From assembly GCA_963733675.1 (NCBI GenBank), contig CAVTET010000001.1:992001-1056000 (forward strand): DNA of 64,000 nt, read 5' to 3'. How positions within the stretch are numbered: the stretch's first letter is position 1; each line of letters opens with the position of its first letter. Positions 15,500-45,988 of this stretch are shown piece after piece. A program made the position numbers and the translations under genes. The DNA comes from an uncultured Methanosarcinaceae archaeon (GTDB lineage Archaea; Halobacteriota; Methanosarcinia; Methanosarcinales; Methanosarcinaceae). A model generated the notes under the pieces. It was given only the letters and a program-made list of their open reading frames with translations. It was not told the origin of the DNA and did no database searches.

Positions 15500-15535
15500 A
15501 AGATCACCATGAAATATCAAGTCAAGTAACTATGA

Positions 15536-15656
15536 TTAAGACTCACGCACTTGAGGTACAAAATCAAGCTTAATAGACTAAGTAGTTTAAACTTGAATTT
15601 TAACCAGCATAAGGTTTAATGCAGTTGATTTTTCAGTTAAACAGTGTGAGTCTTAA
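15536..15656. mobile_element. ~120-bp MITE-like Methanosarcina repeat
   Basis: Perfect terminal IR TTAAGACTCAC/GTGAGTCTTAA; internal CACTTGAGGTACAAAATCAAG...TTTAATGCAGTTGATTTTTCAGTT shared with copies at 29361, 31547 and 54181. Confidence 0.8.
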
Positions 15657-15954
15657 TATTATCTTAAGTAAAGGTTAGTTAATTTAAATCAAATTTAGTT
15701 GTTTTAAACCTAAATAAAGATTGTTATTTAAAAAAACCAACTGCATAACAATTTATAAAAGTAATTTAGTGTAACAATCGCACTCAATGTAAAATAAATT
15801 ATAGATTAAAACAAGTTAAACCTAAATCAATAGATGGTTCTTTTGGAACGTTATTTATATTGCTTCAAATAATCCCCTTAAGAAACCTGAGATGTTCCCA
15901 CATCTCCAGACGTCGGTGATCTTGGAGATGAGATGAGTCTAGATGTGCTGGTGT

Positions 15955-16296
15955 TTATGCGGCTGGTTTTGTTCCTGGATCTTTTGATGCTGTTTCTGGA
16001 AATAGAGTTGCTCCTGCAAGATTTGGACTTGGATCTGGAGCTTTTGCGGGCTCTGCAGGTTCTGAAGCATTCACACTATATGGCATTCCACCGTATGAAG
16101 GACAAATCCAATTACCGTTTACCCATACACAACCAGTACCATAGCCCTAGTAAGGATGAATTCCCCAGCCCCAGACGCCACCCCAGCGACCGCCACCATG
16201 TGCACTAACTGCCACTGTTGTCACAGATAATACAAGAAGTACTGCCAGCAAAATGGTCAGTATCTTTTTTAATCTACTCACTTTTTGTTTCAACAT
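15955..16296 (-). CDS. Small secreted Gly/Trp-rich, Cys-pair peptide with an in-frame TAG at codon 50 (16147-16149)
   Basis: MLKQKVSRLKKILTILLAVLLVLSVTTVAVSA-HGGGRWGGVWGWGIHPY*GYGTGCVWVNGNWICPSYGG... open to TAA at 15955; not in the ORF track. Confidence 0.75.
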
Positions 16297-16866
16297 TTAA
16301 CTCATTCCTTTCTTGTTAGGTTTAATACAATCTTAATCCGGCTAGAAAATAATTTGTTGAGATCGGAGGTTTATTTTAACTTTCATGTGGCTGTATGGTA
16401 AACTTGTATTTAATATTTTTCGTTTATTTAATTATATTTTATGCTATTAAAGTTAAAAATTGTGTTATTTATTCCAAAAAAAGAATTTATATATGTTACT
16501 GATTGAACAATCATTCGTCAAATCAATTAAATTAAAGACCCAAAAATTTTGATATTTTACAGATGCTATGCCAGAAAAGATTTTTGGAAATATTGAAATT
16601 ATAGATGTTCAGGTTTTTCTTACCTGGCTATCTAAAATATTTACACTTACAAGCCAGCAAAAGTTTGTTAATATCAAGTAGGCAGTGTACTAGATTTCTG
16701 TAAATTTTGAATGGTTATACGCCTTTTATTCACTATTTGTTCTAATTCATGGACCTAATTATCATTACAATTCACATTTTGACTCAAAATGCAATGCTTC
16801 TCTTGGATCTATGCAAGATGGGAATAAAGCTTTACTTATGAATAAAATTAAAAATTGTCCGAAAAA

Positions 16867-16983: not shown

Positions 16984-17708
16984 ATGCACATCCCAGATGG
17001 ATATTTAGGGCCGCATACATATATTATTTTTTGGATCATCATGATTCCGATATGGTATTATGCGGGACAGAAGCTGAGCACAGAGCTCAAATCCAAACAG
17101 GTACCACTGCTAGCGCTATCAGCTGCGTTTTCATTTGTAATAATGATGTTTAAATCCCTGTTCCAGGTGGTAGCACAGGCCATGCCGTAGGCGGTGGAAT
17201 TATTGCCCTAGTCATAGGCCCCTGGGCAGCAATTATAGCTATATCTGTAACTTTGGTGTTACAAGCAATGATTTTCGGTGATGGTGGAATAACAGCCATA
17301 GCCACTAACTGCTTTAATATGGGAGTAGTAGTACCTTTTGTCGCTTACTATGCCTATAAGCTTATTAGCGGAAATTCAGAGATTACATCTTCTATAAGAG
17401 TTATTGCTGCGGCCATTGCTGGCTGGATTTCTTTGACCATGGCATCTTTTTGTGCGGGCATTGAATTAGGAATACAGCCAATTTTAGAGCACACTGCTAA
17501 AGGAGTCCCACTTTACATGCCATATACTTGGAGTGTAACTGTTCCTGCCATGGTACTTGAACACGCTTTGGCATTTAGTATTCTTGAAGCACTGATCACA
17601 GCAATTATTTTTGCTTATATCCAGAGAACAGATACATCTGTATTTTACGGAGAGAAATCTGAAGCTGAAATTAACAGAATAGAAATAATGAATGGAGTCA
17701 CAATCTGA
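16984..17708 (+). pseudogene. Nickel/cobalt ECF S component (NikM/CbiM family), frameshift at ~17152
   Basis: MHIPDGYLGP start; ATGTTTAAATCCCTG versus ATGTTCAATATCCCTG in the intact copy at 54503 (1-bp loss). Confidence 0.9.
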
Positions 17709-21627: not shown

Positions 21628-23712
21628 CTACCATATCACAGGCCTCTCATCCTCTGTCCTGTAGAGTTTATCTACTGGCTTTATACTAGAGAACGCCTTG
21701 TAAAACTCAGGCACATTGAAGACAACGCCGTTGACCCTAAACCTGTTTGGAGGGTGGGGATCAGTAAGTGCTCGCATCCTCGGCTTTCATCAGTTTCAGA
21801 TTGCCTCCACATCTGGGCGAAGCTTAAGAAGAATCTTTGATCACCCGTAAATCCATCAATCGTCTTAGGCCCCTCTTTCAATGAAAGTTTGTAGGCATGG
21901 TAGGCCATCGTCAATCCGCCGAAGTCTGCTATATTCTCCTGCAGGGTCAGATTGCCGTTGACGTGTAGGCCGGGCAGAACCTCGAAACTGTTGTACTCAT
22001 CCACCAAAATACCCGTGTTTTTATTAAAGCTATCAGCATCTTTTGGTGTCCACCAATTAGTTAAATTTCCATTAACATCGAATTTTCTGCCCTGGCTATC
22101 GAAGTGGTGAGTCATCTCGTGTCCTATGATGGCACCAATTGCACCGTAGTTTACCGCATCATCAGCGTCCTTGTTGAAGAAGGGAGGCTGAAGAATGCCA
22201 GCTGGGAAGACTACGAGAACCTTATTAACATCAGCATAGGCGTTAGCCTCCTGGGGATTCATCTCCCAGAGCTTACGATCCACTAGCTTGCCTATCTTAT
22301 CCAAGCCATCGAAACTGTGGTGGAACTTAAATTTCGAGGCACGAATGGTATTCATAACATATGAATCATTATTCACTTCAAGCTCTGAATAATTCAGCCA
22401 TTCATCGGGGTAACCTACTTGAACATCCAAAACATCAAGCTTCATTAGGGCCTTTTTCTTGGTTTCGGGTTCCATCCATGTCAAATTTTTAATTATATCC
22501 ATGAATGCTTTCTTTAGGTTGGATACAATCTCCTGCATCCTGGCCTTGGAGCTTGAGTCGAAATACCTGTCTACATAGACCCTGCCTATGTCCTCACCTA
22601 TGGCTTTGTATTCTGCATCAAGGACCCTCTTCCAGCGAGGCTTCATCTCCTGTTGGCCATTGAGCTCTTTCTCATAGAAATTAAAATGCCCTATCTCTAG
22701 ATCTGAACTGAGATAGGGAGAAGTAGCTAAAATCAACTTCCAACGAAGGAAAGTTTTTAAGTCATTTATATTCTCTTCCTGAATAATAGTGCTTAACTCC
22801 TTGAAGTATGATGGGTTTCTTACATTGACCTCAGTTATTTTCGGCTGGCCCAAGAAACTAAAGGCACTAGACCAATTCATTCCTGGAGCAAAGGCCTGAA
22901 GCTCCTCAAGGTTCATCTTATTATATGTCTTGACCTCATCTTTATCTTTCACATTAGTAAAGGATGCATTGGCGAGCTTGGTCTCTATTTCCATGACGGT
23001 TTTGGCATTACTCTTCGCGATCTTTGGGCTATCACCGAGAAAGACGAACATTTTGGCAACGTGAGTTAGATATTGCTCTCTTATCTGGATAGATTCGTTG
23101 TCCTGTCTGAAATAGAAATCTCTATCTTGAAGGCCTAACCCCCCCTGAGTGAGAGTAACGATCATGATCGTACTGTTCTTTTTATTGGGCTCGGCATACA
23201 TAGAGAAGAAAGGATCTATGCCACAATCCATCATTTTCATGGATACAGATTGGACATCGGAGATGTTGGCGATGCTGTCTATCATCTTTAGCTCGTCTTT
23301 GATGGGATCAAGGCGCTGCTTTTCAAGGGTAGCAGTATCCATTCCCATAATGTAAAATTTACCTATCTTCTGCTCGCGGCTTTTCTTAGGAGCAGAGGTG
23401 TTGTTGGCTGCACTTTCCACTATACTTTTAACGTGGTCATAGGTTTTGTCCTCCACTATCTTCAGACTCTCCGTATCGTGATTTATCTGCAGGTACTGGG
23501 TGGCTTTTTATCCAAGCCTCTTTAACATACTCATAAAAATCGTCGCCAGGTTTTACTAAGAAGTTCATACCCCCTGGATCGAAAGCTTTCTCATATCCTG
23601 AAATCGTTTTATTACCCATCGAAGTTTCAGAAGAACCAAAAGCTACGAGGTTTAAAGCGATAATTAATGTGATACCAAAAACGAATACATATATTACTCT
23701 CTTTCTTTTCAT
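21628..23712 (-). pseudogene. M13 (neprilysin/PepO) metallo-endopeptidase with frameshifts near 23455 and 21780
   Basis: VKPGDDFYEYV, VFPAGILQPPFF, HEMTH, ENIADFGG; shifted-frame C-terminus HPPNRFRVNGVVFNVPEFY...RPVIW*. Confidence 0.9.
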
Positions 23713-30486: not shown

Positions 30487-30831
30487 TGAAGTACTATCAA
30501 ATAAAATTAATGAAATATTATAATGATACTAGCAGATAGGTCATTAATCCACAATAAACCAGGCCCGGATATATTACTTCTATAACAAAAAAAACATTGA
30601 CTATTTTATAAGATAAAGGCCTAGGGTTTTACTATATTATATAATTTACATAGTTTGGTTAGAAAATCAATAAGTTTTAAAAATTAACCCGTAAAAATTA
30701 TAGATAATTTTTCTTTGAAAATCAATTTTTCCTTATACACCTCTATTTAATTACGCTTAAAATTAACTCTTGAAAATGGTGCAAGTTCTAACGTCATAGC
30801 TATATATACCAGTTACTGTTCATTAAAAATA

Positions 30832-31326
30832 ATGACAGAAAGACCTTTCCTTGACGAATATTTCCTTGAAATCGCTTTCGTTGTGGGAAAACGATCTACC
30901 TGCCTCTGAAATAATGTAGGAGCAGTTATTGTTAGAGATAAACGTATACTCTCAACTGGATACAATGGGGCTCCGAGTGGTATGGAACACTGCCTTGAAA
31001 TCGGGTGTATTCGGGACATAGAGAAGATCCCTTCAGGCACTCGACAGGAGAAATGCAGGGCAGTGCATGCGGAACAGAATGCCATCATTCAGGCTGCAAT
31101 CCATGGGGTGAATGTATCAGGGGCAACTATCTATTGCACACATCAATCTTGTATTCTCTGCACAAAAATGATTATTAATTCAAATATAAACAAGGTTGTA
31201 TATGCAACTCCTTATCATGATACTGATTCATTTACTTTTTTCAGGGATGCAGGTGTGGAAGTGAAATATATACATTTTGAAATTAAATGTTTAAGTTTGA
31301 CAAGGAGTAAACCCACAGGATTTTAA
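30832..31326 (+). pseudogene. dCMP deaminase family protein with an in-frame TGA at 30907
   Basis: [52 protein letters not shown]; CILC. Confidence 0.9.
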
Positions 31327-31546
31327 CATATCGCTTGTACTCATCTCTGCAAAAGAAGTTCTCTGTAGGAGATCCAAAATGATTTAATTAATTTTATAAT
31401 TTATGGGACAAAGCTCAAAACCATTAAGTCTTTAGCTGAGTGGTAGTTAATATCATATCTAAACTGACCTTTCGCAGATTTACATAGGTGTATAATTTAT
31501 TTGTCTATTTGCACACCTATTTTCCGGTAGTCGAAATATGCTTGCT

Positions 31547-31662
31547 GGTACTTATGTACTTGAGGTGCAAAATCAAGTATAAAAATCATTGCTATTTAAA
31601 TTTTCAATTTAGACAATTAAAAGTTTAATGCTGTTGATTTCTCAGTTTAACTGCGTAAGTTC
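31547..31662. mobile_element. MITE-like repeat copy
   Basis: ACTTGAGGTGCAAAATCAAG...AAGTTTAATGCTGTTGATTTCTCAGTTTAACTGCGTAAGT. Confidence 0.75.
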
Positions 31663-32337
31663 TAACATGAATTTGTATATACATACTAAACCATTAAATA
31701 GTTGGTGTAATATCAAATTTAAAAACAGTATTAATGCAGACATTTTGTGAAATGTCTATCAAATTATTATTTATGCAATAATTTGATAAAATATAAGCTA
31801 ACAAGCATAAATTATTTTTTTGCAGTTAAAAAAAAGTTGGTTATATGCTAAATTTTTAAATATATCTGCCGCATAATGTAGAATGGGTCATGTCTACAAA
31901 TAGTAAAATTTTGCTTATTATAAAAATACACCCTCTTCAGAAAATATAACTGGATTATTTAGTTCTTAAATACTGTTTAACAATGCACTTGCTAGTTGGA
32001 AGTAAATTGAAAAATCAACTACCTTTATAAATAATACAAAATTAAAACAAGTTAGGAGTGTATACAAATATGGAGAAACAAAAATATGATAGAATAAAAA
32101 AGCGAATATTTGTCAGTAAACCCGTTGAGTTTCCATTAATTTCAACGAAGGATAAAATAATAAGTAATGCTGAATACTCCAAAAATAAATAGGGAAATAT
32201 TTGTTACCTTAAGGAATATCATTATCCATCAGGGTTTATCAACAATAAACTATACTTTATATATATATATGTATATATATCAGTGTTATCTGCATTTAGT
32301 GTTAAGTTAAACAATATAAAAGGAGCGTAATAAAATA

Positions 32338-32648
32338 TTGAAACAATCATCTAGTAGAATGAAAAAAATACTGTCCATTTTTTTGTAGTCCTTTTTGTAG
32401 TATCGTTGACAGGTATGTTAGCTAGTGCACGTCCTGGTTGGTACCGTGGTGGACCTTGGGGCGGGGGAGGAAGCTGGGGTGACGGCCTTGGCTGGGGATG
32501 GAACTGGTTGGGTCCGTGTCATTATGTGTACGATGGCACAGGAAACTGGACGGTGTCTTGTCCTTCCCCAGCAACAAACTTCCCCTACTTAGGTGAAATC
32601 CCAGCAGGTACAGTTTCAGATCACTTTACTCCCACTGTCCAGCCTTAG
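32338..32648 (+). pseudogene. Small secreted Gly/Trp-rich Cys-pair peptide, frameshifted in a T-run of the signal peptide
   Basis: LKQSSSRMKKILSIF / VVLFVVSLTGMLASA-RPGWYRGGPWGGGGSWG...CHYVYDGTGNWTVSCPS; paralogous to 15955-16296. Confidence 0.75.
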
Positions 32649-33314
32649 CCCCAGAAAATAATAACAACAATTGGGGAAAACAAAGTATATATAAAGTGTA
32701 AATAACGTTTAAATGCTTTTATTAATCCTACGCAAAAATACTCGAAAAAAGTCTACTATCAATTGGTCGTAAAAGTAAATATGAGACTTTTAATTTGTTT
32801 TTTAGGACTAAATCGACTTCTTTTTATGACCATATAATTCTAAATAGATCCAGCTTTCATTAAACATAGTTTCTGTACTAAAATCTCTGAATTTTCAAGC
32901 TCCATCCAGAATAAGAAAACATTGAAGATCTGTTACTAATGGAGCACTGGAACTTCTAGAACATTTGGAGCTCCTGGAACACTTAGAACTAATTAGCCTA
33001 AACCACAATTCTAAATGGAAATATTAGAAAAATATAATTATATAGATCTGGCAGTGTACTGAAAGTTCTGTAAAATTTAATTAAACTCTATGCTATTGCT
33101 ATCAATTTATAGCTCGCAATTGTTATTAGCTTGATTTACACAGGAAGGAATCCCCACTCCATCATCTGTTATCATAATATATGAAGTTCCAATGAAAATG
33201 GAGTTATGCATGTTCACACCGTTTATGGTCTGTCGGGGCACATCGTCTATTGTCACTTCACTATCAGTTATGTGGATTTTCTTGCCTTCTGCATAAAAAA
33301 TTCCATTCACTGCA

Positions 33315-33653
33315 ATGTATCCATCTTCTGTAATTACAGGCCTTACAAGAAGAAGTAAATCTAGTAAGGATGAATTAAATCGTAGTAAAGAAGGCTACAC
33401 AGGCCAAATAAAAAGTTTGGAGGAAAAGTTAAAGGCAGCTCCGGATATCGCTGAGTTCTCACGTCTGCAGGCAAGAGCCGAAGATTTACATGATCATAAC
33501 GAGACATTAAAGAAAGAGCTTGAAAAGGCAGAGAGAGATAAAGAGGACCTTAAGACCACGTATAATAACTCCTTTCTGCAGGTTCAAACGCTCATAAATC
33601 AAAAGTCCATTGAAGCACCAGGATCTAAAAAATCTTGGTGGCAATTTTGGTAA
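33315..33653 (+). CDS. Coiled-coil protein ending KKSWWQFW (probably 5'-truncated)
   Basis: Heptad-rich body; basic-aromatic C-terminus common in plasmid/MGE DNA-binding proteins. Confidence 0.6.
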   Translation: MYPSSVITGLTRRSKSSKDELNRSKEGYTGQIKSLEEKLKAAPDIAEFSRLQARAEDLHDHNETLKKELEKAERDKEDLKTTYNNSFLQVQTLINQKSIEAPGSKKSWWQFW

Positions 33654-33659
33654 GTCCGC

Positions 33660-34090
33660 CTAAAATTCTCCAACCATAGATAACTTATCTAGAATTTTAT
33701 TCCTAATTGCATCTGTATCTTTAACTATTATCTCAACATTTTCGTTTTTATTCTCTGAAATGACGTCCATTTTTCGGTACAAATGTCGACCAAAATCCTC
33801 CGGGAAACGTCTTTCCAGAATCCACATGCAAACCGGGCAGTTTCAGCATTGGCGGCTTTATTAAGGTGTTCAAGACATTTTTTAGCCGCATCTGCATTAC
33901 ACTTATTTATATATTTATAAAACTGATGATAATTCCCAGATTTCTCTGTCTTGCCCCTATTCATCCAGGAATTGAAAGTTTGGTAAGTTATACCAACAGC
34001 TTCGGCAGCAAGAAAATAGGAAAGTCCCAAAGCAATATTGTCACCAATTTTCTTGGTTATATTAGGCGTCATTTTAGTCGGTCTAGCCAT
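33660..34090 (-). pseudogene. Terminase small-subunit-like HTH protein, frameshift near 33845
   Basis: MARPTKMTP...AAEAVGITYQTFNSWMNRG; shifted frame CMWILERRFPEDFGR... to TAG at 33660. Confidence 0.6.
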
Positions 34091-34575
34091 GGTTACACCG
34101 TTTTTCAGTTCTTTGTAATAATATATGCGGGTCTTATCTTAAATATTTACTTAGTTTGATTATGCACGAAGCCGAGTTTTGGGATATGAACTCATAAATT
34201 GAACGATTGTGGGGCAATCTCATGCCTTTTTTAGGGTAGGTAGGTTTCTACAGGACTTCACATCGAAGTCTCCAGAATGAGCTTATATTAAGCGTTTTTT
34301 GGACAAAAACTAAATCCCATAATTTTACTGCCAAAAAACCGGGGGCATCTCCGAGATATTTTTCACATACTTTTATTAATTTAAAATTATATAAATTATA
34401 TTTATTAAAATAGTCACGTAGCTTTTTAGATCGGAATATGAATTTTTATCCCATTATTATAGAATCTGTAAAAACATATTAAAATAGTATGGGGGATGTT
34501 GACCGATTTCCGTTCTTTCACAATAGGATAGAGAGAATTTATAACAAATTATTTAACAACTTGTTAGTTAAATGG

Positions 34576-34971
34576 CTAGAACTGATCTCCATGATCATCT
34601 GTTTCAATCTGCAAAAACAAAGGTTTTACTTCTGTATTACCATCTTCATCGACTATAGTGCAATCCAATTTGTACATATTAGTAGCTGGTTGATCAAGCG
34701 CAGCTGTTTGGTCTTGTAGTGTTTTTTCGCAGAACGTTAAATATCTACGGTTTCCTTCTTTATCAAGAAGTACCGGAGTATATAATAAACACGGTTTCTC
34801 AATTGATGAGTCAAAGTTTTCACTGGGTACACTTAGGACTTTCCAAGATTCTACCGTACATTCTTCCAATTTAAACGGAAGATCTTGGAGATAATCTTCT
34901 TTTAATTCAGGCGTTAATTTTAATGAAATTTTCGGATCAAACTCTTGCTTTCTGTTGTCAATAAAACTCAT
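34576..34971 (-). CDS. Hypothetical protein of the integrated element
   Basis: 131-aa ORF abutting the upstream ORF, with a GGTGA RBS. Confidence 0.65.
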   Translation of the reverse strand: MSFIDNRKQEFDPKISLKLTPELKEDYLQDLPFKLEECTVESWKVLSVPSENFDSSIEKPCLLYTPVLLDKEGNRRYLTFCEKTLQDQTAALDQPATNMYKLDCTIVDEDGNTEVKPLFLQIETDDHGDQF

Positions 34972-35205
34972 TTAATCACCTGCAATTTTCTGCCAACCAT
35001 AACCATCGCCTTCAATTTCTATTTTTTTTACTTTGCCTTCATTTACAAGCTTATAAAGCATGATTTTAGCAGTGGACCTGCTGCATCCTACTAAACTCAT
35101 AATAGTTGTAGCGGACTTAATACTGTCAATTGATAGAGCATTCAGTAACATATCTTCTGTAAATTGCTGTTGAAATCTTGTTTTACCACCTTTCATATTA
35201 CCCAA
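34972..35205 (-). CDS. Small winged-helix DNA-binding protein
   Basis: SATTIMSLVGCSRSTAKIMLYKLVNEGKVKK. Confidence 0.65.
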   Translation of the reverse strand: MGNMKGGKTRFQQQFTEDMLLNALSIDSIKSATTIMSLVGCSRSTAKIMLYKLVNEGKVKKIEIEGDGYGWQKIAGD

Positions 35206-35649
35206 TCTATTAGCCCGTAAATTTTCAAGAAAATACGCTACTATATACGATTTGTTATTATTTATACTTTATAATCACCCGATAATGGTAATGGTAAAGG
35301 ATTCCATTTTGATATTTGAATAGTTGGTTATGGAGAAGATTTCGATGGAAAAAATTAAAACCGGGAAAATTTTAGAAATAGAACAGAATAAAACGAGCAA
35401 TATAAGCAAACAGGAGGATAAAAACAATAACTATAGCCTAGTTAAGTAATATATCTAATATATTTATCTCTTGCATTTTTCCATCTTACCCACATTCTAG
35501 GAGAAAATAATCTTTTTTACCTCTACATATTACCAATATTGCCTATTTTTGCATGAAAGGAAAAAATTTGAATTTTTATAAAATATCTTTTAAACAAAAC
35601 TATTTTTTTCTCAATATAGTTTCCTATTTTGGGGTGAACTAATAATTAT

Positions 35650-37363
35650 CTACTTCTGCCAATAATCTGAGAATTTTACATCAACTACACAAGGAATATG
35701 TTTTAAGTATTTACTTCCTGCTTTTTCCATTATTGTTTTTACAAAAGTACAGACTTCCTCAGCATTCTCCTCTTTACACTCAAATACGAGTTCATCATGC
35801 ACGATGTTAATGAATTTTACACCTAAAGGCTCGAATTTAGCCTGGGTTTGGGGAAGAGCTTCCTTAATCATATCTGCGCATAGTGATTGAATAGGTAGAT
35901 TCGTTGCTTCCCTACCTGCTGCACTCTCGTCTTTATCGCCATCAATAATTAATAGCCTACCCTGCAGCATTTCGTAATTCTCTATTCTGTATGCCTTCCT
36001 GACTTATTTTGTCCATATACCTACTTAGAGCAGGATAAGCTCCCTTAAAAGTACGAATGTACTCCTTAGCCTGATCTTCTGTCAGTTCAATTCCAGCATC
36101 TGTTTTTAACTTTTTCATCAAGCTTTTAGCGGACATCCCATAAAGTAAACCAAAATTAATTGTTTTTGCTATACTGCGTTCTTTGTCAGTTTTTTGAATG
36201 CTATCAAATGGCTTGTTAAAGATCTTAGAAGCAGTGAGGGTATGAATATCCACATTAGCAGCATAAGCTTCTATAAAAGCAAGCTCATCTGCTTTGTCTC
36301 CTAATATCCTAAGCTCTATTTGGGAGTAGTCAAAAGCTATTATTTTATTTCCCGACTCAGCTGTAAATATAGTTCTCCATTTGTTGTATTTAATAGGCTG
36401 TTGCTGAAGATTAGGATATTTACAACTGAACCGCCCTGATTTTGTGCCATACTGAAAAAAGTTAGCATGAATCCTACCTGTTGTTCTTGCTCTGTATGCT
36501 GGTAATTTCGAACAAAAGCTTGTAATTAGATGTTTTACTAGCTTGTATTCTTGATATTTATCTATCAGAGGATCTTCGTATTTTGCAAGCTCTTCAACAT
36601 TTATCGATGTAACAGGAATATCTTCTTTATTAAATTGTTTTACCATCTCCTTAGGAGAGTTAAGATTTATCTTGCTAGTTCTAAAATCTTCGTATAAAGA
36701 ATATCTTATATCCTTCTCTAATCCCACAAGTTCTGATGTTATCTCTTCCAATTTCTCCGGGTCATAGTGCATACCTGAAAGTTCAAGCCAGATGGTTGCA
36801 GGAATCACTTTCATTTCTGTATCTATGACAGACTCAAGCCTAAGTTCTTTTATTTTCTCTTGTTGCTTCTCCATAATGATAGGAAGGTACTCAAGGTCTT
36901 TCTTGCAGTATTCAATCTGTTCAGTTGTAAGCTCTTCCCCAAGCCTAAATGAGCACTGAAGCCTTTTACTCATCCTTTCCCTATCACAATAACGATGAAC
37001 TAAATCCTTTAATCGCATACCTTTTTTATCTTTATCTTCTTGCGAACGTAAACGATCTGCAGGGGCAGGACCACCTTTTATAGTAAGCTCAGCTATCATA
37101 GTATCATAAACAGAATGGATATTAACCCCATATTGCTGTTTCAGCATAGCACAGTCAAATTTTAGATTATGGCCTACTATAGTAAACCTATCAAAGAGCT
37201 CTTTGTAATCAGATAAATCATTAAGTTCTTCACCTTTGATAACGTGAAACTCGCCTGATTCGGTTAAAAACTGAACTGTAACTATCTCATCTCTATGATA
37301 ATCCGGCTTCTTACTCTTTGGATCAAACCGCATAGTTTCAATATCAAGAAAAAGGAAGCTCAT
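35650..37363 (-). CDS. polA: Family A DNA polymerase (3'-5' exonuclease + polymerase, no 5' nuclease); single +1 frameshift at ~35960
   Basis: ExoI DIET, ExoII HNLKFD, ExoIII YCKKD, TKSGRFSCKYPNLQQ, motif A DYSQIELR, motif B RSIAKTINFGLLYG, NLPIQS, motif C VHDELV. Confidence 0.95.
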
Positions 37364-37611
37364 ATTGCATCCGCCCCCTTCTCTGCGTGCAATGCTCGCT
37401 TTAGGATTGCAATACCTTTCTTCTCAGCTGCAGGCTTTTGAATAACATCTTCTTGTTGCTGACTTTTAGCTAAAATAGGAGTAGATTCCAACATTTTGTT
37501 AAAAGCATACTCTAAATGTGGTGTTGATTCATGATTAAATTCAGGACTTAACCCTTTAAAATCGTTATTGTCTTCTGTTTTAATTAAATTACTGGCAGGA
37601 TCTACTGGCAA
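37360..37611 (-). CDS. Hypothetical protein overlapping the polA start (ATGA)
   Basis: 83-aa ORF, translationally coupled; its start lies in the repeat array and is uncertain. Confidence 0.45.
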   Translation of the reverse strand: MPVDPASNLIKTEDNNDFKGLSPEFNHESTPHLEYAFNKMLESTPILAKSQQQEDVIQKPAAEKKGIAILKRALHAEKGADAI

Positions 37612-37914
37612 GTTGGCAGGCTTCCGAGCAGTTTCCGATGAAAAACCTGCCAGTGTCTTTGGCTGTGTTTTTATATTTATTCCAGATGAAATCTACCCCT
37701 GCTCTTGTTCATGATTTTGAGCAAGCTGGCAGGCTGGCAGGTTAGTAGAGCTTATCTTTTTATCTGTATATTGATATGGAGAAGAGATTTCTTTCTCATC
37801 TTCTTTTTCATTTTCTGTGGTAGAACTACAATAGGGGTTTTCAACCTGGCAGCCTGCCAGTCCTTCTACAGCATTCGAAAATTCCTGGCAGGCTTTTTCT
37901 GTCGTGTCTGCCAA
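37592..37914. repeat. Iteron-like array of ~10 YTGGCAR heptamers in both orientations
   Basis: Copies at 37592, 37605, 37613, 37647 (inverted), 37726, 37734, 37846, 37854 (inverted), 37885, 37908 (inverted). Confidence 0.75.
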
Positions 37915-40679
37915 TTTTAACTGTTTATCTGTTTGATTGTTGATCTGTTTCTCGAATTCAAGCTTGGAAGCATATATATCATATTTATTAATTTGTATAT
38001 CCTCCCAATAAGCTACTTTCTGTTTTGATTCATTATCATAAAGTCTAACATCAATAAAACCTATTTTTTTCATTTTTAGTCCAAATGTAGAATAAGGTAG
38101 CTTTTTTATTTGGTTATATTCAGCCCAGTCCAAATAAACTTTGTACACTTCTTTCTTTTCAGTAAGCTTAGCAGGAGAGTGATCTACACCGGCTTCACAA
38201 AAAGCACTTACAGGGGAGCTGTTTTTAACATAAATATCCTCAACTTGCTCTATATCTTTATCATAAGAGAATTGCATTTCAGCAAGTACATTTTTTAAAT
38301 GAGGTAAAACTAAGTTGAGAAATCCTGATTTTCCTCTTCAGTTATCAGTTTATTGAAAAGAGATTTATCATCATTTTTTCCTTCAACGAATTTTTTAGGG
38401 AAATGAATTAATATCCATCTACGAAAAAATGAATAGCCTCCTTCTTTTATCTCGGGTATTTTGTTGGCAGAAAACATTAACCTAGCTGTATTGTAAAAAC
38501 TAAACGAATCTTTATACTTTTTTCACCTACGATTCTGTCTCCACCAACTAAAGTTTTGAACATATCACTATAATAAACAGCTTGATCTTTCAAATCAGGA
38601 TAAATATTTAATAATTTTCCATCAAGATTGGATACTGCAAATTTATCAGTTTCAAGTTTTTGAAGACTCATACCACTTACGTTCTTGTCACCAATCCAAT
38701 TAGTTATAAATTTTAACCAAATGGATTTCCCATTAGCTCCATCCCCAAAGAGCATGAGAGCCTTTTGGATTTTAGTATCTGGAATTAAACTGTATCCAGC
38801 AAACTCTAGTAATACCTTAGCATCTTGTTTAGAAATTTCAATATCTACTAAGAATTTATTAATATTAGGACACTTTGCGGTAGGATCATAAATTACTGGA
38901 ATTTGTCGTATAGAATAAACGTCAGGTCTATGCTTTTCTAAATTTCCTGTCTGTAGATTGAATAGTCCATTTTTCAAATTAATTAAATGCTCTGAGCCTT
39001 TGTCAATTAAATCTCGTGATTTGTTTGTATACACTTTTATGAATTTTATAACTTCAATAACAAAATCATCGTCACCTACAGGAATATGTTCAGGTAAATC
39101 TTCCGTTAACAACTCTTCCCATTTTTCCTTAAATGTTTTTGAATACTGTTCTCTAATTACTTGATCAATAATGTTGTCAGCACTTTCTTGGGTGTAAACT
39201 CCATCTTGATAAAGATATAATTCTTTTGTCTCACTTAACGTTATTATAGAATGTTTTTCCATTATGATTTTTCCAATTACGTCAAAATGCACCTCATTTT
39301 TAATTTAAAAGTATCAGCTTTTGGATCTCAGAAACGGAAAGCTCATTAATATTTTTCGAGTTTTTAGTTACTGTTGTTCTTGCCCATGATTTTGCGGATT
39401 TCTTTAACGTAAATATATCATCAGCATTAAGTTTAAAAATTAATTTTAATTTATTGATGTAAGCATTACGATATAATGGATCCAGTTTAAGTAAATGTTC
39501 TTTAATGAACTTTTCAACAGAATTTAAGTCAATTACTTTATCATCAGTTACAATATAATTTCTTAAAACAAAAGAAAAAAAATCTTCAGCTTCTGTCACC
39601 AAATTATTGAAATCAGCAACTTTTTTCTCTTTCATATACTCTGCGATATCTATTTTACTAAGATTTTCTCAAGGTAGAGTAATAATTTTCACAGACAAAC
39701 TAGTATCAAAAAGAATTTGCCCAACTTCTCTAGCTCCATTTTGTCCTGCTCTATTCTCATCATTATCAAAACAAACGTAAATTTTAGATTTTGTTCTCAA
39801 AATATCTATTAAGTGGGCTTTGTTTTCGTCTGTTGTATTAGTAGATCCTAGGGAGATACAAGGAAATCCAAACTGATTAAGAACTATACAATCTGCCAGA
39901 CCTTCAGCAATAAAGCAAACATCTGCATTCTTTATTCTGTCTTCCCCAAAAAATCCTTTTTTGTTGATAAATTCAGAAATCTGCTCATTTTTAGTTTCAG
40001 ATCTAATTCGCAGATATTTGTATTTTGGTCCGTTATCATAATCTGGAGCATCAGGAGTTACTCTACCTGCAATATACTGAATTGTACCATTGCTAGTATA
40101 AAGAAAAATGATTCTACCTCTATAAAATTCCCCTCCCATGTTTCCGGTATCAGTAGTGTAAACTAGCCCAGCTTTGATCAAGTTTTTAGGATCCATGCCT
40201 TCCAGATTTCGCTCAGTGGAAGCATATCCTAGGTTCCAATCATCCACTGACTCCTTGGTAATCCCCCATTGATTGAAAATGAAACTGTACTGCTCATTAG
40301 TTAAATTTCCATGGTAGATATCTGCAGCTGTAGTAAGAGTGTTATAAACGTCTTCCTTTTCTGCAAGCTTGTTGGCTTGCTCATCAGAGAATGGCTCAAG
40401 TTGAATTCCAGAAATTTCTGTAGCTTTTTCAAGTGCTTGCCGTTTAGTAAGTCCTCTTTCTATATATTGAATAAAATCAAGAATACCTCCACCAACATGG
40501 TTTTTGTGACAGAACCAGGTATTTGTATTAAGTCGAACATGTAGACTTTTACCTATCTGCCCCACAGGTGGGATTGATCCATAATACAGATCCCCTTCTC
40601 TGGTTAGGTTAATTCCATAAGATCTGATTATTTTGACTATATCCATTTGAGCGAAAATAGAATTAGAAGACATTTTCAA
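37693..40679 (-). pseudogene. Fused primase-helicase: Zn-finger-like + DnaG-type TOPRIM primase + D5_N/SF3 helicase + wHTH, broken into four ORFs
   Basis: GGGILDF, FIAEGLAD, VCFDNDENRAG; ITLP*ENLSKIDIAEYMKE is in frame across TGA 39669; INLKNGLFNL, Walker A GDGANGKS, shifted-frame LMFSAN and FFRRW. Confidence 0.88.
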
Positions 40680-40827
40680 ACTTCCGGGAGTAAAATTAGG
40701 CTTGAGACGAACAAAGCCCTCATAAAATTCTCATTTTCTCGAGCAGCACAGCATTCAGAACAGTATTTAATATATAACAGTTCAAGGGCTGTTTTTTGCA
40801 GGGTTTAATATACATCCAAAACGACAT

Positions 40828-41121
40828 CTATTTCGCCCCCTTGTCTTGCATCTTTCTATACTTCAACTCTTGGTATATATTTTGCAAATTTTGAACCACA
40901 TGGTATGGATACATTGCGAGAAAATTATTTAAAAAGTAAATGCCCCTTATTAAAAATTCTTCTGTTACCCCGCAGGACTTAGACACCTTACGCCAGTTGC
41001 AGTCTTCTATGTCATCTAATTTATGCCATTTGTTGTTAAAAATAGCTTTATAATTTGTACATTTGATTATTTTCGATTCTGTCAGGCAATTCAATTTCGA
41101 GAACTTGTTTTTATTGACCAT
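40828..41121 (-). CDS. Hypothetical protein of the integrated element
   Basis: 97-aa ORF with an AAGGTGA RBS. Confidence 0.55.
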   Translation of the reverse strand: MVNKNKFSKLNCLTESKIIKCTNYKAIFNNKWHKLDDIEDCNWRKVSKSCGVTEEFLIRGIYFLNNFLAMYPYHVVQNLQNIYQELKYRKMQDKGAK

Positions 41122-41272
41122 GTCGTTTTCACCTTTAAAATTTTGGAAAACAGTAACAGTATCGGATACTACCTGAATACCCTTTTTGTGTTAGATTTAA
41201 ATATAATATGAGATCTAATAACACATTTAAGTTGTAGTCAAACACAAAGTATAAATTCTTGAAACGCGACAT

Positions 41273-41361
41273 GGTACATGGGGATAGTACCGCATCGTCA
41301 TTAAAAACCCATACTTATGACGATACTGAGCCCGAGACTGTTAGAGCAATCTCGGGTTTTT
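41273..41361 (+). ncRNA. Candidate three-hairpin small RNA antisense to the replication operon leader
   Basis: Stems GGTAC/GTACC, ATCGTCAT/ATGACGAT, CCCGAGA/TCTCGGG followed by T5; TATAAA at 41250. Confidence 0.45.
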
Positions 41362-41522
41362 CCATTCGTACTTTTATATAAATATAACTATATTAACTCT
41401 GTATATCATTTTATCATCTGGTTTTTTGATATTCAGGAAATTTCGCTGTTGTTCCTAGTTAAGTTAATAAATCAAAGCCGTTTCTAGTGTGTTAAAGACA
41501 TTATTATTTAAACTTGCCTCCT

Positions 41523-41669
41523 TCATGTTACTGAAAAAATAATTTTTGCCATCGCTCGTTCAATTGGGGCGCCGAAGTTTCGCATATATTCAATAATTTC
41601 TCTTCTTTCAGAGCAGACTTGTCTAAATGCAGCAATAGTTTCAGGTCGAAAAATTACATCATCTAACAT
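41523..41669 (-). CDS. 48-aa hypothetical protein
   Basis: MLDDVIFRPETIAAFRQVCSERREIIEYMRNFGAPIERAMAKIIFSVT; AAGGA RBS. Confidence 0.5.
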   Translation of the reverse strand: MLDDVIFRPETIAAFRQVCSERREIIEYMRNFGAPIERAMAKIIFSVT

Positions 41670-41743
41670 TCTTTTAATTCCTTTTCTGAGTCATATATTA
41701 TGGGTATTTTTCATTCACGCTTTTTATCATGTCAGTTTTAGGA

Positions 41744-41869
41744 TCAGTTTATAGCTTTTTCAATGATTTTGGAAAGAAATTTGCTCCGTGCAGTTTCCCC
41801 CCTGGTAGCTTCGATTCTGGAATAAACATCAGGCTGTACATAGACATTTACGAGAACTTTTTTTCCCAT
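41744..41869 (-). CDS. 41-aa ribbon-helix-helix (CopG-like) regulator
   Basis: MGKKVLVNVYVQPDVYSRIEATRGETARSKFLSKIIEKAIN: beta strand, helix, (S/A)RS helix pattern. Confidence 0.7.
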   Translation of the reverse strand: MGKKVLVNVYVQPDVYSRIEATRGETARSKFLSKIIEKAIN

Positions 41870-41970
41870 TTGAATTATTATATCAACCCACCAAAATTAC
41901 TTTATTAAGATTATATATACAAATTAATTTAATATTATTTAAACATTTTGTTTTTTGAAGGCTTCCGCTA

Positions 41971-42014
41971 TGTATACGTGTATGCATGTATGCATGTGTG
42001 CATACACGTATACA
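41971..42014. promoter_or_regulatory. Perfect 16-bp inverted repeat
   Basis: TGTATACGTGTATGCA-N12-TGCATACACGTATACA. Confidence 0.7.
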
Positions 42015-42062
42015 CATATACAGTTTAATAAACAAGTGAAAAAAAATTATAAAATTGAAAAG

Positions 42063-43217
42063 TTAACCATTGCTGCTTTTAACTGCATTTATAAGGGCAT
42101 TTAAAATTGCAGGATCAGCTTTTTGAAGTTGCAAAACAAGTTCTGAGATTTCGGTTTTTTCGGTTTCGATGGTTTTGCTAGATTCTGTCGTTAACGGTAG
42201 ACCACATCTAAAACAAAATTGTGCTTTTTTGTCTATAATCTCCTTACATCGGGGACATTTTAAAACTCTGGGCTTCTCTTCTTCTTCTTCAGGTAATTTG
42301 AGACCTGAAGCTTCAAGCATTGCTGCATTAATGTCGTTCGCTGATAGATGAATGTAAATATTAGCCATCTGAGAGTTAGCTTTCCATCCTAAAACAGCTT
42401 TAAGCTTTTGTTCACTCTTCAATTTCTTAGCCAAATCTGTAGCTCTTGCATGTCTAAATGAATGCGGATTGATTCTCTTCTTGATTCCTGCTGCCTTTCC
42501 TATGATCGCAATTTGCTGGTATAAACTTGATCGAGATATCAAATTATAAGGCTCTCGAAATGAACAAAAAATCGGAGCATCAGGGTCTTCTTTCCTAGGA
42601 TGAATTTCCAGCCATTGGTGAAGGTAAGAAGACGCAAAAATCAATCTCACAGGTCTAGCGCCTGTTTTCCCTTCACGAAGCCACAAAAGGCATCCATATT
42701 CGTCGAACTTTGCATCTGCAATGGTTGTACTTAATAATTCTCCCTTCCTTGCTCCAGAGTCTGTTAAACAAGCTATTAATGCTTTATCCCTCGCTGTGGG
42801 AGCATGGCGGATTAAACAATCAATTTCTTCATCTGTTAAAAGTTGATCTGGTGTTATACTGCTATGTTGTGTGTTTTTCGTTTTGATGCATCCTGCGAGC
42901 TTTGGGTTAATTTTTCCTATGAATACCCTGATGACAATCTTGTGAAGCTTGATCGATGAATTTTTCAGGTTCTCAATAGTGTCCAAATAGTCGTTAAAGT
43001 CTTCTTCGGTAATTTTTTCATATGGTTTTTCTAAACACTTTGAGAAGCGTATTAGTATTATCAGATGATTAATTATCGTCCTTGGTTTCCTTTCTTCATC
43101 CTGTAACCTTTTGATGTGCTTTTTGAGCGTTTTGAAATTCTCCGGTAATATTTCGGCCTCTACAATTTTTAGTCGATTGTTCCAGTAAGCTAAGTCAAGA
43201 ATATCTTGTTGAAACAT
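42063..43217 (-). CDS. Tyrosine recombinase/integrase with a C-terminal zinc ribbon
   Basis: SGARKGEL, GKTG, HSFRH, LGW, IYIH catalytic residues; CPRC..CFRC. Confidence 0.95.
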   Translation of the reverse strand: MFQQDILDLAYWNNRLKIVEAEILPENFKTLKKHIKRLQDEERKPRTIINHLIILIRFSKCLEKPYEKITEEDFNDYLDTIENLKNSSIKLHKIVIRVFIGKINPKLAGCIKTKNTQHSSITPDQLLTDEEIDCLIRHAPTARDKALIACLTDSGARKGELLSTTIADAKFDEYGCLLWLREGKTGARPVRLIFASSYLHQWLEIHPRKEDPDAPIFCSFREPYNLISRSSLYQQIAIIGKAAGIKKRINPHSFRHARATDLAKKLKSEQKLKAVLGWKANSQMANIYIHLSANDINAAMLEASGLKLPEEEEEKPRVLKCPRCKEIIDKKAQFCFRCGLPLTTESSKTIETEKTEISELVLQLQKADPAILNALINAVKSSNG

Positions 43218-43475
43218 GATTCTAATAACGCACCTTCCATATAAAGTAGTTTCCTTATTTTAAGTAAACTACCATTACTAAACTGCAAAATTTAATGGCT
43301 TAAGAGCTTGCTTATACATAGTTTTTGTGAGAAAAGTTTTGCATTGGGAATTCAATAACTTATGAAACGCCTGAGTCGCTATATTTCTGCTAATATGAGT
43401 ATCATATTTAGAATACAAATTGCATATTGAAAAAATATATAAAGTAAGCGCGCTAAAAAGTTTGAAGTATAAACT

Positions 43476-44213
43476 ATGGGTAAACAAATATTTAACAAAA
43501 CAAAAAAAATACTAGGCATGTTAATGGTAACCTTTTTAGTAACATCAGTGACAGCCATGGCAGTAAATGCTTACGATGGTATGTATGACCACGATAATGT
43601 TGTGCAAATAACTCAGCTTGAACAGATAAACACATTTCTACATAAGGGACCGGTGTTTGTGGAGCTGAAAGCTAAGTCCTGTAGACCATGCCAGCAAATG
43701 AAGCCTATTTTGGAAAAACTTGCGGCAAAATACCACGGAAAAGCTACAATCGCGTCTATTGATATATATCAGAATCCGGAACTTGTGAAATATTTTGGCG
43801 GCTACAACCTTCCTGATGCTTTTGTGATTGTTGGTACAAAAAGCGGAAAATACGTTTACATAGATGACGATGGAAACAATACTGTGGATAGATCCCAAGC
43901 CAAGATTATTGGATTAAACGCTGAAAATGAAAACAGGTTTGAAAAAATTATTGATCGTGCTCTTATTCAGCAAGATAACAATAAATATATGCTAACTGGA
44001 CAACACAAAAACGGAAAACCCTCCCGCGAACAACAAAACGGTGAAAACTATTCCGGCGAACAATACCGAAGAGGACAATACACAGGTGGAGAAAACCAAG
44101 GGAGACAATTCCCAGGTGGACTATTCCCAGGTGAACAATATCTCAGCGGACTCCCAGGTGAACAATATCTCAGCGGACTCCCAGGTGGACAATTCCCAGA
44201 TGAACAATTCTAA
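43476..44213 (+). CDS. Secreted thioredoxin-family protein with a Gly/Gln/Pro repeat tail
   Basis: Signal peptide; CRPC motif; 27-bp tandem repeat encoding PGEQYLSGL twice. Confidence 0.85.
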   Translation: MGKQIFNKTKKILGMLMVTFLVTSVTAMAVNAYDGMYDHDNVVQITQLEQINTFLHKGPVFVELKAKSCRPCQQMKPILEKLAAKYHGKATIASIDIYQNPELVKYFGGYNLPDAFVIVGTKSGKYVYIDDDGNNTVDRSQAKIIGLNAENENRFEKIIDRALIQQDNNKYMLTGQHKNGKPSREQQNGENYSGEQYRRGQYTGGENQGRQFPGGLFPGEQYLSGLPGEQYLSGLPGGQFPDEQF

Positions 44214-44998
44214 AGCGAATAATTTGATGTAACTCATTGATCACCTTGTATTTCCGGGTGAATACTTGATTGACATCGAGCTTATGCAGTTGACTTTTTG
44301 CAGTCAACTACATAATCCCATAATTTTTGGAGTTAATCACTCAGTTACACATCAAATAATTATTTTCCAAATACAACTAATACCAATAAATGCAAAAAAA
44401 GTATTAAAAATTATAAAAATTAAAAATACTTGCTTGCCATCTATTTTAATTTGGGAAGTCTACATAGAATTCTTTAAATCCTGATTGACTTTATATCCTT
44501 TTCTTTGCTGCAAAAAACGATTAATCTTTATTATTAACACACGCTTTTTTTGTCTTAAAACCCGTGTATTCTAGCAATCCTCAGTCGAAGTTATAAGATA
44601 TTTTTACCGAATTGTACTGGAAATGCATAGTTTTTATTGAAATTCATCTTCTGATGTTGGCTCTGAAAATGCGTTTTTTGCTCAAAAAATGTTCTATTGT
44701 TAAAAGAAGCCTTATTAATCGACATCTTCCTCTTTAAAGCTGCATGAACCCTTTTTATTCAACACGCTTTATCCACCAATAAACCGTTGAGATATAAACT
44801 AGTAAATCTTCTCAACTTTAGCTGAACTCAAAATCACTTTTTAGCCAGTAATAGGGCTTGAAGTCTTATTGTTAGTTTTTGTCGCAGAAACTGATGATTG
44901 CCTTAGCAACATAATACTAATGAACATATCAAACATAATTAACCTAATATACTTATCTTATATAGAATAATGTTGTGTTATATTTGAGTTGACTAAAT

Positions 44999-45988
44999 AT
45001 GGCATTGTTGGATACATCTGCAGAAAGTGGTTTAAATAAATTTCTGGAGGAATTCATCGAAAAAAAAAATACTATTCAAGATTTAAAGCAGTTCGAAATC
45101 CTGGAAACTGAAAACGCTACCTCTGACAATATAGTTACAACCAAAAATGATGCCTATTCCAGAAAACTGCAACAAAATTATACACACATTCAACTTGACC
45201 AGAGAGTTATAACCGAAGATAGTGCCATTGGAATAAGAATGGCAAAAATTGCAGAAATCAATTTTAAAAACCAAAATGAGGCTAATAGGTCGCAGGTTTT
45301 TTACTCACGTGTCTCTCAGCTAAAGGGCCCCTTTAAAGAAGAGTTTCTTGAAAAAGCCATTGATTTTGCCTGCAATATTAAATCTGAAGATTTAAGAGCA
45401 CAGACACTTTCTCTCATTATCCCGATTCTGGAGGGGGAAAAAAAGGTAGAACTTATACAAAAAGCCCTTTACTCTGCATCCTATATTCAAGATGAAAACG
45501 GAAGATCCCTTGTACTTTCTTCGCTTGCACGCTATCTAAGAGGTCCGAATAAAGAAAAACTTATTGCACATATTTTTGACTCCTTTTCCCAAATTCAATC
45601 TGGCGATGCAAAGTTCCAAATACTCTCTTCGCTTGTTCCGCATCTTTACGGATCAAAAAATGAACTAATTATGGATAAAGCCCTTGAATTAGTATCGGGG
45701 ATTACATCTGAATATCAAAAATTAGAGTCTTTTTCTCTGCTTATTCCATATCTTACTGAGAAAAGGGAAAAGGAAATTATAGAACAAGCCCTTGAGTTAG
45801 CTTTCAACATTAAAGACAAAGATATGGTACCCCAGGCTCTTTTATTAATCATTCCATATCTGGATGAATCTAGACAAAAAAAAATTATTGAGAAAGCCCT
45901 TATTCTTGCAAACGAGATTCAATCGGAGGATCGAAAAGAACAGGCTTTCACATCGCTTGCTCAGTATCTTTATGAAACAGAAAAATAG
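44999..45988 (+). CDS. Alpha-helical (HEAT-like) repeat protein
   Basis: ~35-aa repeats EKALELA..I..E..R..ALS.L.PYL. Confidence 0.8.
   Translation: MALLDTSAESGLNKFLEEFIEKKNTIQDLKQFEILETENATSDNIVTTKNDAYSRKLQQNYTHIQLDQRVITEDSAIGIRMAKIAEINFKNQNEANRSQVFYSRVSQLKGPFKEEFLEKAIDFACNIKSEDLRAQTLSLIIPILEGEKKVELIQKALYSASYIQDENGRSLVLSSLARYLRGPNKEKLIAHIFDSFSQIQSGDAKFQILSSLVPHLYGSKNELIMDKALELVSGITSEYQKLESFSLLIPYLTEKREKEIIEQALELAFNIKDKDMVPQALLLIIPYLDESRQKKIIEKALILANEIQSEDRKEQAFTSLAQYLYETEK

Follow-up and report, generated by a model that had tools for sequence, protein, structure and literature searches.

We analysed a window of 64,000 nucleotides from the genome of an uncultured Methanosarcinaceae archaeon (C1:992001-1056000, on a contig of 1.16 Mb). 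Its minus strand carries a gene for a short family A DNA polymerase (PolA), made up of a 3'-5' exonuclease domain and a polymerase domain, the frame of which is broken by one extra base (Table 1). The gene is divided between two open reading frames (ORFs). ORF1 matches the Pfam families DNA_pol_A_exo1 (PF01612; E 8e-18, residues 7-171, 65.3 bits against a cut-off of 23.6) and DNA_pol_A (PF00476; E 6.6e-55, profile positions 3-266 of 381, 187 bits against a cut-off of 34.3), and ORF2 matches the latter family further on (E 6.1e-19, profile positions 288-380, 68.6 bits), so that jointly they span PF00476 profile positions 3-380. Because these matches run on from one ORF to the other, ORF1 and ORF2 are consecutive pieces of one gene, and the strength of the matches is well past what chance would yield. 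No single uninterrupted frame holds a complete palm domain, as motif C sits in the other frame, after codon 468. When GGGT at the joint is read as a single step, an open protein of 570 residues is obtained (P0001), in which ...LRNAAG passes into RLLIID....

The catalytic residues of both domains are preserved. In an alignment with Escherichia coli DNA polymerase I (Pol I), all 14 motif residues checked are identical. In the exonuclease domain, D355/E357 of the E. coli enzyme correspond to D7/E9, D424 to D70 and Y497/D501 to Y152/D156; in the polymerase domain, D705/E710 correspond to D345/E350 (motif A), R754/K758/F762/Y766 to R396/K400/F404/Y408 (motif B) and H881/D882/E883 to H522/D523/E524 (motif C). 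The patterns tested were DYSQIEL for motif A, RxxxKxxxFGxxYG for motif B and HDE for motif C. Exonuclease and polymerase catalytic residues are moreover invariant across 15 members of the clade to which the polymerase belongs, the intact members of which are proteins of 550-590 residues with a Klenow-like proofreading domain, a polymerase domain and no 5' nuclease. The Pfam scan of the window polymerase likewise found no 5' nuclease domain, and Exo I is already at residue 7. The original prediction had described a compact exonuclease-polymerase of family A, of about 570 residues, lacking a 5' nuclease, with all exonuclease motifs and motifs A, B and C, lying in an archaeon and separated from an intact gene by an extra G in GCA GGG TAG G. 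This description is borne out in full, the host contig being that of a Methanosarcina with archaeal genes around the locus. The extra G had also been called the only lesion, which holds for the polymerase gene, both parts of which are open in their own frames.

The coding strand at the joint reads ...GCT GCA GGG TAG GCT ATT.... Two close sequences were available for comparison by blastn: L001, a locus from an uncultured Methanosarcinaceae metagenome-assembled genome (MAG) with an intact ORF of 570 residues (L001:10001-11713) that is 90% identical to the window gene, and a paralogous fragment of the host's own genome that covers the C-terminal part of the polymerase (C1:612454-613236). A single gap separates the window from both, and it lies in the G run: the window has GCTGCAGGGTAGG, and both others have GCTGCAGGTAGG, with GG. 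Ten homologous proteins were inspected; seven span the site and all seven are continuous through it (...RNAAGRLL..., ...RNAAGRRL... or ...RNVAGRLL...). Similarly, the nine near-full-length matches in other genomes (G181, G136, G090, G118, G129, G015, G125, G149 and G046) are each in one frame without stops. These alignments show that the extra G is the derived state.

The same base was found in other data. Contigs from four public runs (X1 and X2 of study P1, X4 of study P2, and X6) were compared with window positions 35400-37600. Contigs bridging the GGG site with 0 differences and 0 gaps are present in X1 (344 nt, depth 15.4), in X2 (344 nt, depth 7.3) and in X4 (319 nt, depth 3.6), the last from a different study; they lie on 35848-36191 or 35850-36168. 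X6 has no cover at the site. Runs X1 and X2 also contain a second form of 343 nt, which is one base shorter and has the substitutions expected of the paralogue or of an L001-like strain. Present in three of the four runs and in two studies, the extra G looks real. The junction in its GG or GGG form was met in 0 stretches of the Joint Genome Institute (JGI) metagenome contigs, a result that is uninformative either way. A JGI contig also yielded P0008, a relative 94% identical to the window protein, whose last residues are ...FKELILP in place of the ...FKGAYPAL of the window. Such an ending would result if a single base were lost from the GGG in AAGGGAGC, which lies 60 nt upstream of the window break, and it suggests that a close relative has a second frameshift, independent of the first and likewise in a G run.

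The break appears to be young. Between the window and L001, the ratio of nonsynonymous to synonymous substitution rates (dN/dS) is 0.235 upstream of the shift and 0.172 downstream of it. When codon changes were assigned to branches with G181 and G136 as outgroups, nonsynonymous and synonymous changes numbered 17:14 upstream and 4:3 downstream on the window branch, and 15:13 and 4:4 on the L001 branch, counts that cannot separate a recent break from a downstream part that is still translated. The end branches in the tree are alike in length (0.056 for the window, 0.048 for L001), and the 102 codons downstream of the shift are still open, without excess of changes. Because there is no sign of relaxed constraint, the break is recent relative to the roughly 9% DNA divergence from L001.

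The polymerase gene appears to belong to an integrated mobile element of roughly 10 kb. On the same strand, genes for a helicase, a DnaG-type primase and a tyrosine integrase lie upstream of it, and a putative winged helix-turn-helix (wHTH) gene, an ORF without assigned function and a gene resembling terminase small subunits (TerS) lie downstream. The block is flanked by host genes, namely those for a Znu-type ABC transporter, hisI, purC and archaeal Nre (Nre_N/Nre_C), and is best seen as a small integrated replicon and not a bacterial insert; the ABC block has a counterpart of 88% identity in a Methanosarcinaceae MAG. The helicase gene is in three frames, with frameshifts near 38495 (an A run with 6 where 7 are needed) and near 38325 (an A run with 4 where 5 are needed); the relative P0123, 91% identical to it, is continuous through both shift sites. 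The 122-codon segment that follows on the primase side was probably once part of the helicase gene. The TerS-like gene is split over two frames, and its L001 version (L001:13773-14195) is intact, with 140 residues and a better match to the same family (phrog_4102, E 1.4e-21); the assignment rests on one PHROG family. Neither Pfam nor PHROG scans recognised a capsid, portal or large terminase gene in the element. The original prediction had not foreseen that the gene lies in a mobile element, that the frame is lost in the helicase and TerS-like genes of this element as well, or that intact relatives are already common in public Methanosarcina genomes.

The element is variable among relatives. 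L001 has the primase, polymerase, wHTH and TerS-like genes in common with the window and differs in the integrase and in the middle module with the helicase, the synteny of the two being a mosaic with an inversion. In G181 (C21, L035), the primase and the middle module form one ORF of 1259 residues, about 880 of which have no Pfam match, and the polymerase follows; in G136 (C76, L016/L036), a single stop-free frame of 1589 codons takes in both primase-helicase and polymerase. In the window copy, the in-frame TAG at 37693-37695 stands in CAG GGG TAG, the same GGG-TAG context as the polymerase break, and divides the C-terminal segment of the helicase from the 110-codon segment, the end of which is conserved in relatives. 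Another in-frame stop, TGA (39669-39671), follows the Toprim domain of the primase. These TAG and TGA codons may be natural ends, nonsense mutations or read-through sites.

Repeats were noticed at two places near such elements. Window positions 44051-44223, at the 3' end of a thioredoxin-domain ORF (43476..44213), hold seven overlapping copies of a repeat with a 15-nt period (CCCAGGTGGACAATT-like). In L035 of G181, about 3.5 kb downstream of the element (reverse-complement 13549-16773), the peptides ...HPHACGEL... and ...SSPRLWGT... recur in several frames; they come from a long DNA repeat array, possibly a clustered regularly interspaced short palindromic repeat (CRISPR) array.

Table 1. Features of the polymerase gene and its element, damaged host genes, and further PolA loci mentioned in the text (window positions unless a contig or locus is named)
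Feature	Position	Strand	Description
Whole family A DNA polymerase gene	35650..37363	minus	570 codons plus one extra base; 3'-5' exonuclease and polymerase, no 5' nuclease
ORF1, 468 aa	35957..37363	minus	Exo I-III and polymerase motifs A and B; premature TAG at 35957-35959
ORF2, 106 aa	35650..35970	minus	ATG at 35968-35970; polymerase C-terminus from residue 5 (RLLIID...); motif C HDE at 35791-35799
3'-5' exonuclease domain	36851..37345	minus	Residues 7-171; Exo I D7/E9, Exo II N66/D70, Exo III Y152/D156
GGG run with one extra G	35960..35962	minus	Frameshift site; GG in relatives; corresponds to E. coli Pol I residues 820/821, between motifs B and C
110-codon open segment	37360..37692	minus	Just upstream of polymerase; stop overlaps polymerase ATG; end ILKRALHAEKGADAI resembles C-terminal tail of the 1259-aa primase-helicase of G181
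D5_N / DUF5906 (superfamily 3 (SF3) P-loop) / Pox_D5-C helicase	37693..39292	minus	In three frames; in-frame TAG at 37693-37695
122-codon segment	39300..39668	minus	Homologous to N-terminus of a 482-aa protein of L001
DnaG-type primase, 336 aa	39669..40679	minus	CHC2 zinc ribbon, DNAG_N, Toprim; ends at TGA; 80.5% identical to L001 primase
Tyrosine integrase	42063..43217	minus	SAM-like N domain, Phage_integrase, C-terminal zinc ribbon
Putative wHTH protein, 77 aa	34972..35205	minus	Adjoins polymerase in L001 too (80.5% identity)
ORF without assigned function, 131 aa	34576..34971	minus	Kept in L001 (56% identity)
TerS-like gene	33690..34090	minus	Split over two frames; phrog_4102, E 1.3e-13
cbiM lesion	~17150-17187		One base lost in A run
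M13 peptidase lesion	23437-23456		Split into overlapping ORFs; frameshift of untyped context
dCMP deaminase lesion	30907-30909		In-frame TGA
Hydantoinase B lesion	~57010		One base lost in T run
Divergent PolA-like locus L007, host genome (G000)	C4:167838-171737
Divergent PolA-like locus L009, G000	C4:48378-52151
Divergent PolA-like locus L008, G000	C5:57434-61057
Divergent PolA-like locus L012, G000
Divergent PolA-like locus, G000	C12:273634-274502
Divergent PolA-like locus L010, G000	C1:1066657-1070421		Just past window end
Polymerase of family f11, L117 (G224:C1:1570000-1587000)	7744-9666	minus	Among ordinary host genes
Polymerase of family f11, L118 (G260)	7149-9059		Adjoins DnaB-like helicase

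The relatives of the polymerase that carry organism names are mostly from methanogens. The 120 best matches in the protein collection range from 78% down to 41% identity and are mostly of 550-590 residues; organism names were obtained for 10 of them, eight being Methanosarcina and two bacterial MAGs (Lentimicrobiaceae and Pacebacteria, on contigs of 6.2 and 2.5 kb). The NCBIfam models for Pol I score below their cut-offs (TIGR00593, 268.6 against 600 bits; NF004397, 301.8 against 720 bits), with matches beginning at profile positions 374 and 318. These queries brought up no close viral relative: the 4783 matching phage records are all below 60% identity, the best 40 of them all at or below 31%, and the clade is not among the best 80 viral contig loci, all of which are at or below 35%. 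A maximum-likelihood tree (53 rows, 550 columns, LG+G4, with the Shimodaira-Hasegawa-like approximate likelihood-ratio test (SH-aLRT) as sole support measure) was built from 45 clade members, that is, the window gene, L001, 10 genome loci and 33 of the 120 matches hand-picked across the identity range without fragments, together with eight anchors (E. coli Pol I with its 5' nuclease removed, phage T7 and six further phages); Aquificae, apicoplast and cyanobacterial sequences were not included. The clade is split from all eight anchors by a branch with an SH-aLRT of 99, E. coli Pol I groups with three polymerases of Firmicutes phages, and the window polymerase is sister to L001 (support 100). 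With so small a set of anchors, the tree indicates a distinct clade and not its source.

Within the order Methanosarcinales the distribution is patchy. P0001 has matches at E <= 1e-20 in 16 of 201 genomes (12 of the 140 of high quality) and in 5 of 28 genera, including 6 of the 27 genomes of the host genus and 6 of the 49 genomes of genus g16, which belongs to another family. This patchy spread, with the integrase, is what a mobile element would give. A profile of the clade finds matches in 32 of 401 genomes of the phylum, most of them belonging to a different and more distant group (family f11, see below). The host genome is 3.92 Mb long, in 15 contigs, with 35.7% GC, the same as contig C1, an estimated completeness of 92% and a contamination of 2.7%. 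Two genomes of the same genus encode proteins identical to entries of Methanosarcina sp. UBA289 and M. lacustris Z-7289, and the host is, by these identities, a Methanosarcina in the sense of the genome collection. It holds 19 matches to PF00476, 17 of them above the cut-off, and no P0001-like copy that is in one frame over its full length.

We consider it likely that the window allele is a real and recent pseudogene. To judge from domain content and gene order, the integrase of an intact element would insert it into the host genome, the DnaG-type primase would make primers, the helicase would unwind the DNA and PolA would extend the primers with proofreading; the polymerase is thus, we infer, the replicative DNA polymerase of the element. 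In the window copy, insertion of one G (GG to GGG) shifts the frame after residue 468, and the next codon, TAG, is a stop. The predicted product would keep the exonuclease domain and motifs A and B and would be deprived of motif C, whose Asp and Glu hold the catalytic metals. Because motif C is absent, it presumably cannot polymerise, and it could keep exonuclease activity. The gene would then most likely have become a pseudogene only recently, within an element that has lost its autonomy, the decay of the element as a whole being a weaker claim than the one made for the polymerase, because assembly indel errors are probable. Of the three causes offered in the original prediction, recent mutation fits best; a sequencing error agrees poorly with the three runs from two studies that carry the G, and a conserved slippage site is found in no relative.

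Several observations weigh against this reading, and most of them concern the assembly. Host genes in the window are also broken (cbiM, hydantoinase B, M13 peptidase and dCMP deaminase), which means either assembly indel errors or a pseudogene-rich genome. One element recurs, in copies that are 91-99% alike, as the small repeat contigs C8, C9 and C10 and in the initial ~2 kb of C5 and C6, and C8, C9 and C10 differ mutually by 15-45 gaps per 4.5 kb; this element, which carries a P0105-like PolA (73-79% identity) in two or three frames, evidently breaks the assembly. The assembly thus probably carries long-read indel errors, and the helicase and TerS lesions may not be real. Coverage by ORFs of 200 codons or more is 43% for contig C1 and 45% for the window, figures that, without a reference genome, give no verdict on assembly quality. 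In addition, the records of the confirming runs do not name their sequencing technology, and the best holder among these runs may itself be the sample from which the assembly was made. The dN/dS of 0.17 downstream of the shift would also be expected if the gene continued in use by recoding. Finally, neither att repeats nor exact borders of the element were found, a direct-repeat search of 30500-45000 having given only short, imperfect two-copy families; the window contains no tRNA gene.

The first of these points lead to the alternative of an undamaged gene in the living cells, with the extra G introduced as a consensus error during long-read assembly. It would sit well with at least four genes of the host and three more of the element that look frameshifted or stopped in the window, mostly through one-base losses in A/T runs, with the many gaps between repeat contigs and with a library type of the confirming runs that is not on record. 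We nevertheless find it improbable. The GGG form occurs with 0 differences in three of four runs and two studies, beside the separate form of 343 nt that fits the paralogue. Furthermore, the polymerase lesion is a gain in a G run of two bases, whereas the other lesions that can be typed (the two in the helicase gene and those in cbiM and hydantoinase B) are losses in A/T runs. Being a gain in a G run and seen in other runs, it is treated here as confirmed and the other lesions as unverified.

A second alternative, to which we likewise give little credence, is that the gene is still used, either through a +1 ribosome shift at GGG-UAG, in which tRNA-Gly would re-pair on GGU with the stop codon still unread, or as a two-piece polymerase of 468 and 106 residues. 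Sites of +1 frameshifting usually have a stop codon immediately behind them, as in prfB and antizyme. The downstream part is open, with a low dN/dS relative to L001, and the in-frame ATG of ORF2 lies inside the terminal part of ORF1, 13 nt ahead of the stop. However, the shift site is absent from all seven spanning proteins, all nine genome matches, L001 and the paralogue; most of the selection signal is older than the mutation, and the lineage counts are too low to decide. No Shine-Dalgarno-like GGAGG was seen in the 20 nt before the ATG of ORF2, and neighbouring genes of the element are out of frame too. The RNA runs X11, X19 and X20 cover only small shares of the stretch. Reading of UAG as pyrrolysine was considered separately and rejected, as in-frame read-through adds only five codons before a TGA; PylS does not rise above its cut-off in the 92%-complete assembly (best 30 bits against 178), with the M. 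acetivorans control passing.

The original prediction had also allowed for a contig chimeric with bacterial DNA and for a truncated ordinary cellular Pol I, and a truncated Pol I on a chimeric or mis-binned contig is hardly credible: polymerase and DnaG-type primase are genes of bacterial or phage type and 2 of the 10 relatives with organism names carry bacterial MAG labels, but the long contig has the GC content of the genome and archaeal genes on both sides of the element, the other named relatives are Methanosarcina, identical proteins are encoded in congeneric genomes, of which one consists of a single contig of 4.1 Mb, the protein stays below the NCBIfam cut-offs for Pol I, and in our limited tree the clade stands apart from E. 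coli Pol I and seven phage PolAs.

The search brought up two further groups of PolA-like proteins. The host genome itself contains a second, divergent family, with at least six loci (Table 1) and an identity of 22-26% to P0001 in the region of motifs A-C. Its ORFs reach 684 residues, the N-terminal ~300 residues have no Pfam match, and several copies have internal stops; in L009 and L010, a conserved ORF of 189 residues (MPFNFE...) adjoins the gene. The other group is that of family f11, in which a family A polymerase of 590-690 residues with exonuclease and polymerase domains is encoded by 19 of the 24 genomes sampled (genus g37: 15 of 18). It is a single match in 18 of these 19 genomes, and the names in the database are 'Halobacteriota archaeon'. 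Its nearest relatives outside the family are cyanobacterial proteins named 'bifunctional 3'-5' exonuclease/DNA polymerase', at about 41-45% identity. The f11 polymerase looks like a fixed cellular gene and not a mobile one.

Taken alone, the window copy matters little: it is most likely a one-base pseudogene of a gene that public Methanosarcina genomes already list, in intact form, under the name 'DNA polymerase'. More interest attaches to the family of elements, in which a clade of short proofreading PolA enzymes stands beside DnaG-type primases in integrated elements of methanogens. A passage of Kazlauskas et al. 2016 (PMC4889955) describes PolA and DnaG-like primases as largely or wholly confined to bacteriophages, and the relevant part of a 2024 paper on polymerase swapping (PMC11348598) credits archaeal viruses with family B polymerases. 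No account of a PolA clade in Methanosarcina elements came up in a full-text literature search, though one may still exist in other papers. The wider context has three parts: the family of elements with PolA, DnaG and TerS-like genes, the divergent PolA-like family in the same genome, and the near-universal PolA of another archaeal family. The elements might constitute an undescribed family of small self-replicating integrative elements of Methanosarcinales that bring DnaG primase, helicase and PolA into a PolB/PolD host, and they may be satellites of an archaeal tailed virus, since they have a TerS-like gene only and no capsid; in the boldest version, the window allele would be expressed by a +1 shift at GGG-UAG. 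We put this forward tentatively and regard it as rather doubtful. Intact members such as those of L001 and G181 are candidate compact mesophilic proofreading polymerases, and could serve as a test case of a bacterial-type replisome inside an archaeal cell.

Among curated models, the polymerase resembles most closely NCBIfam NF011539 (PRK14975.1-3), the 'bifunctional 3'-5' exonuclease/DNA polymerase' family, which has the same two domains and no 5' nuclease. The match (E 1.6e-106) places residues 6-570 on profile positions 71-627 of 628, but at 357 bits it falls short of the cut-off of 640, so that the window gene is not a member by the NCBI rule; related models score lower. It also differs in that it sits in an archaeal integrated element. 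The top relative with a solved structure is the apicoplast (PREX) polymerase of Plasmodium (PDB 7sxq, 7sxl and 5dku; E 9.5e-54, residues 82-568), again an exonuclease joined to a polymerase. This is, however, an enzyme of a eukaryotic organelle, and at 186 bits it is only slightly ahead of the Klenow fragment (165 bits), with the Taq and Bst enzymes next (about 150 bits). The likeness to Aquificae-type PolA that the original prediction had named is a possibility on which this ranking and the NF011539 match bear. The apicoplast polymerase works with a primase-helicase, with which it is fused in PREX. The Klenow fragment of E. coli Pol I shares both Pfam domains and the 14 motif residues with the window polymerase, which is about 30% identical to a Salmonella polA found in the phage collection. 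In contrast, the window protein is without a 5' nuclease, and Pol I, which the tree places outside the archaeal clade, is a cellular repair enzyme and not the replicase of an element.

At the level of the element, a purely functional analogy can be drawn with phage satellites of the type of phage-inducible chromosomal islands, in which an integrase, a primase or primase-helicase, a regulator and a TerS-like gene are likewise held in roughly 10 kb, with no structural genes recognised. The likeness is one of gene content, and the present element differs in having its own DNA polymerase and an archaeal host. The combination of activities has a counterpart in Pas55 of the Actinoplanes phage phiAsp2, which, in the section of PMC4889955 that deals with it, unites SF3 helicase, DnaG primase and PolA in one protein. 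The same three activities lie side by side in the element described here; unlike the Pas55-type modules of phages, they are found in an archaeal host and in a small integrated element.

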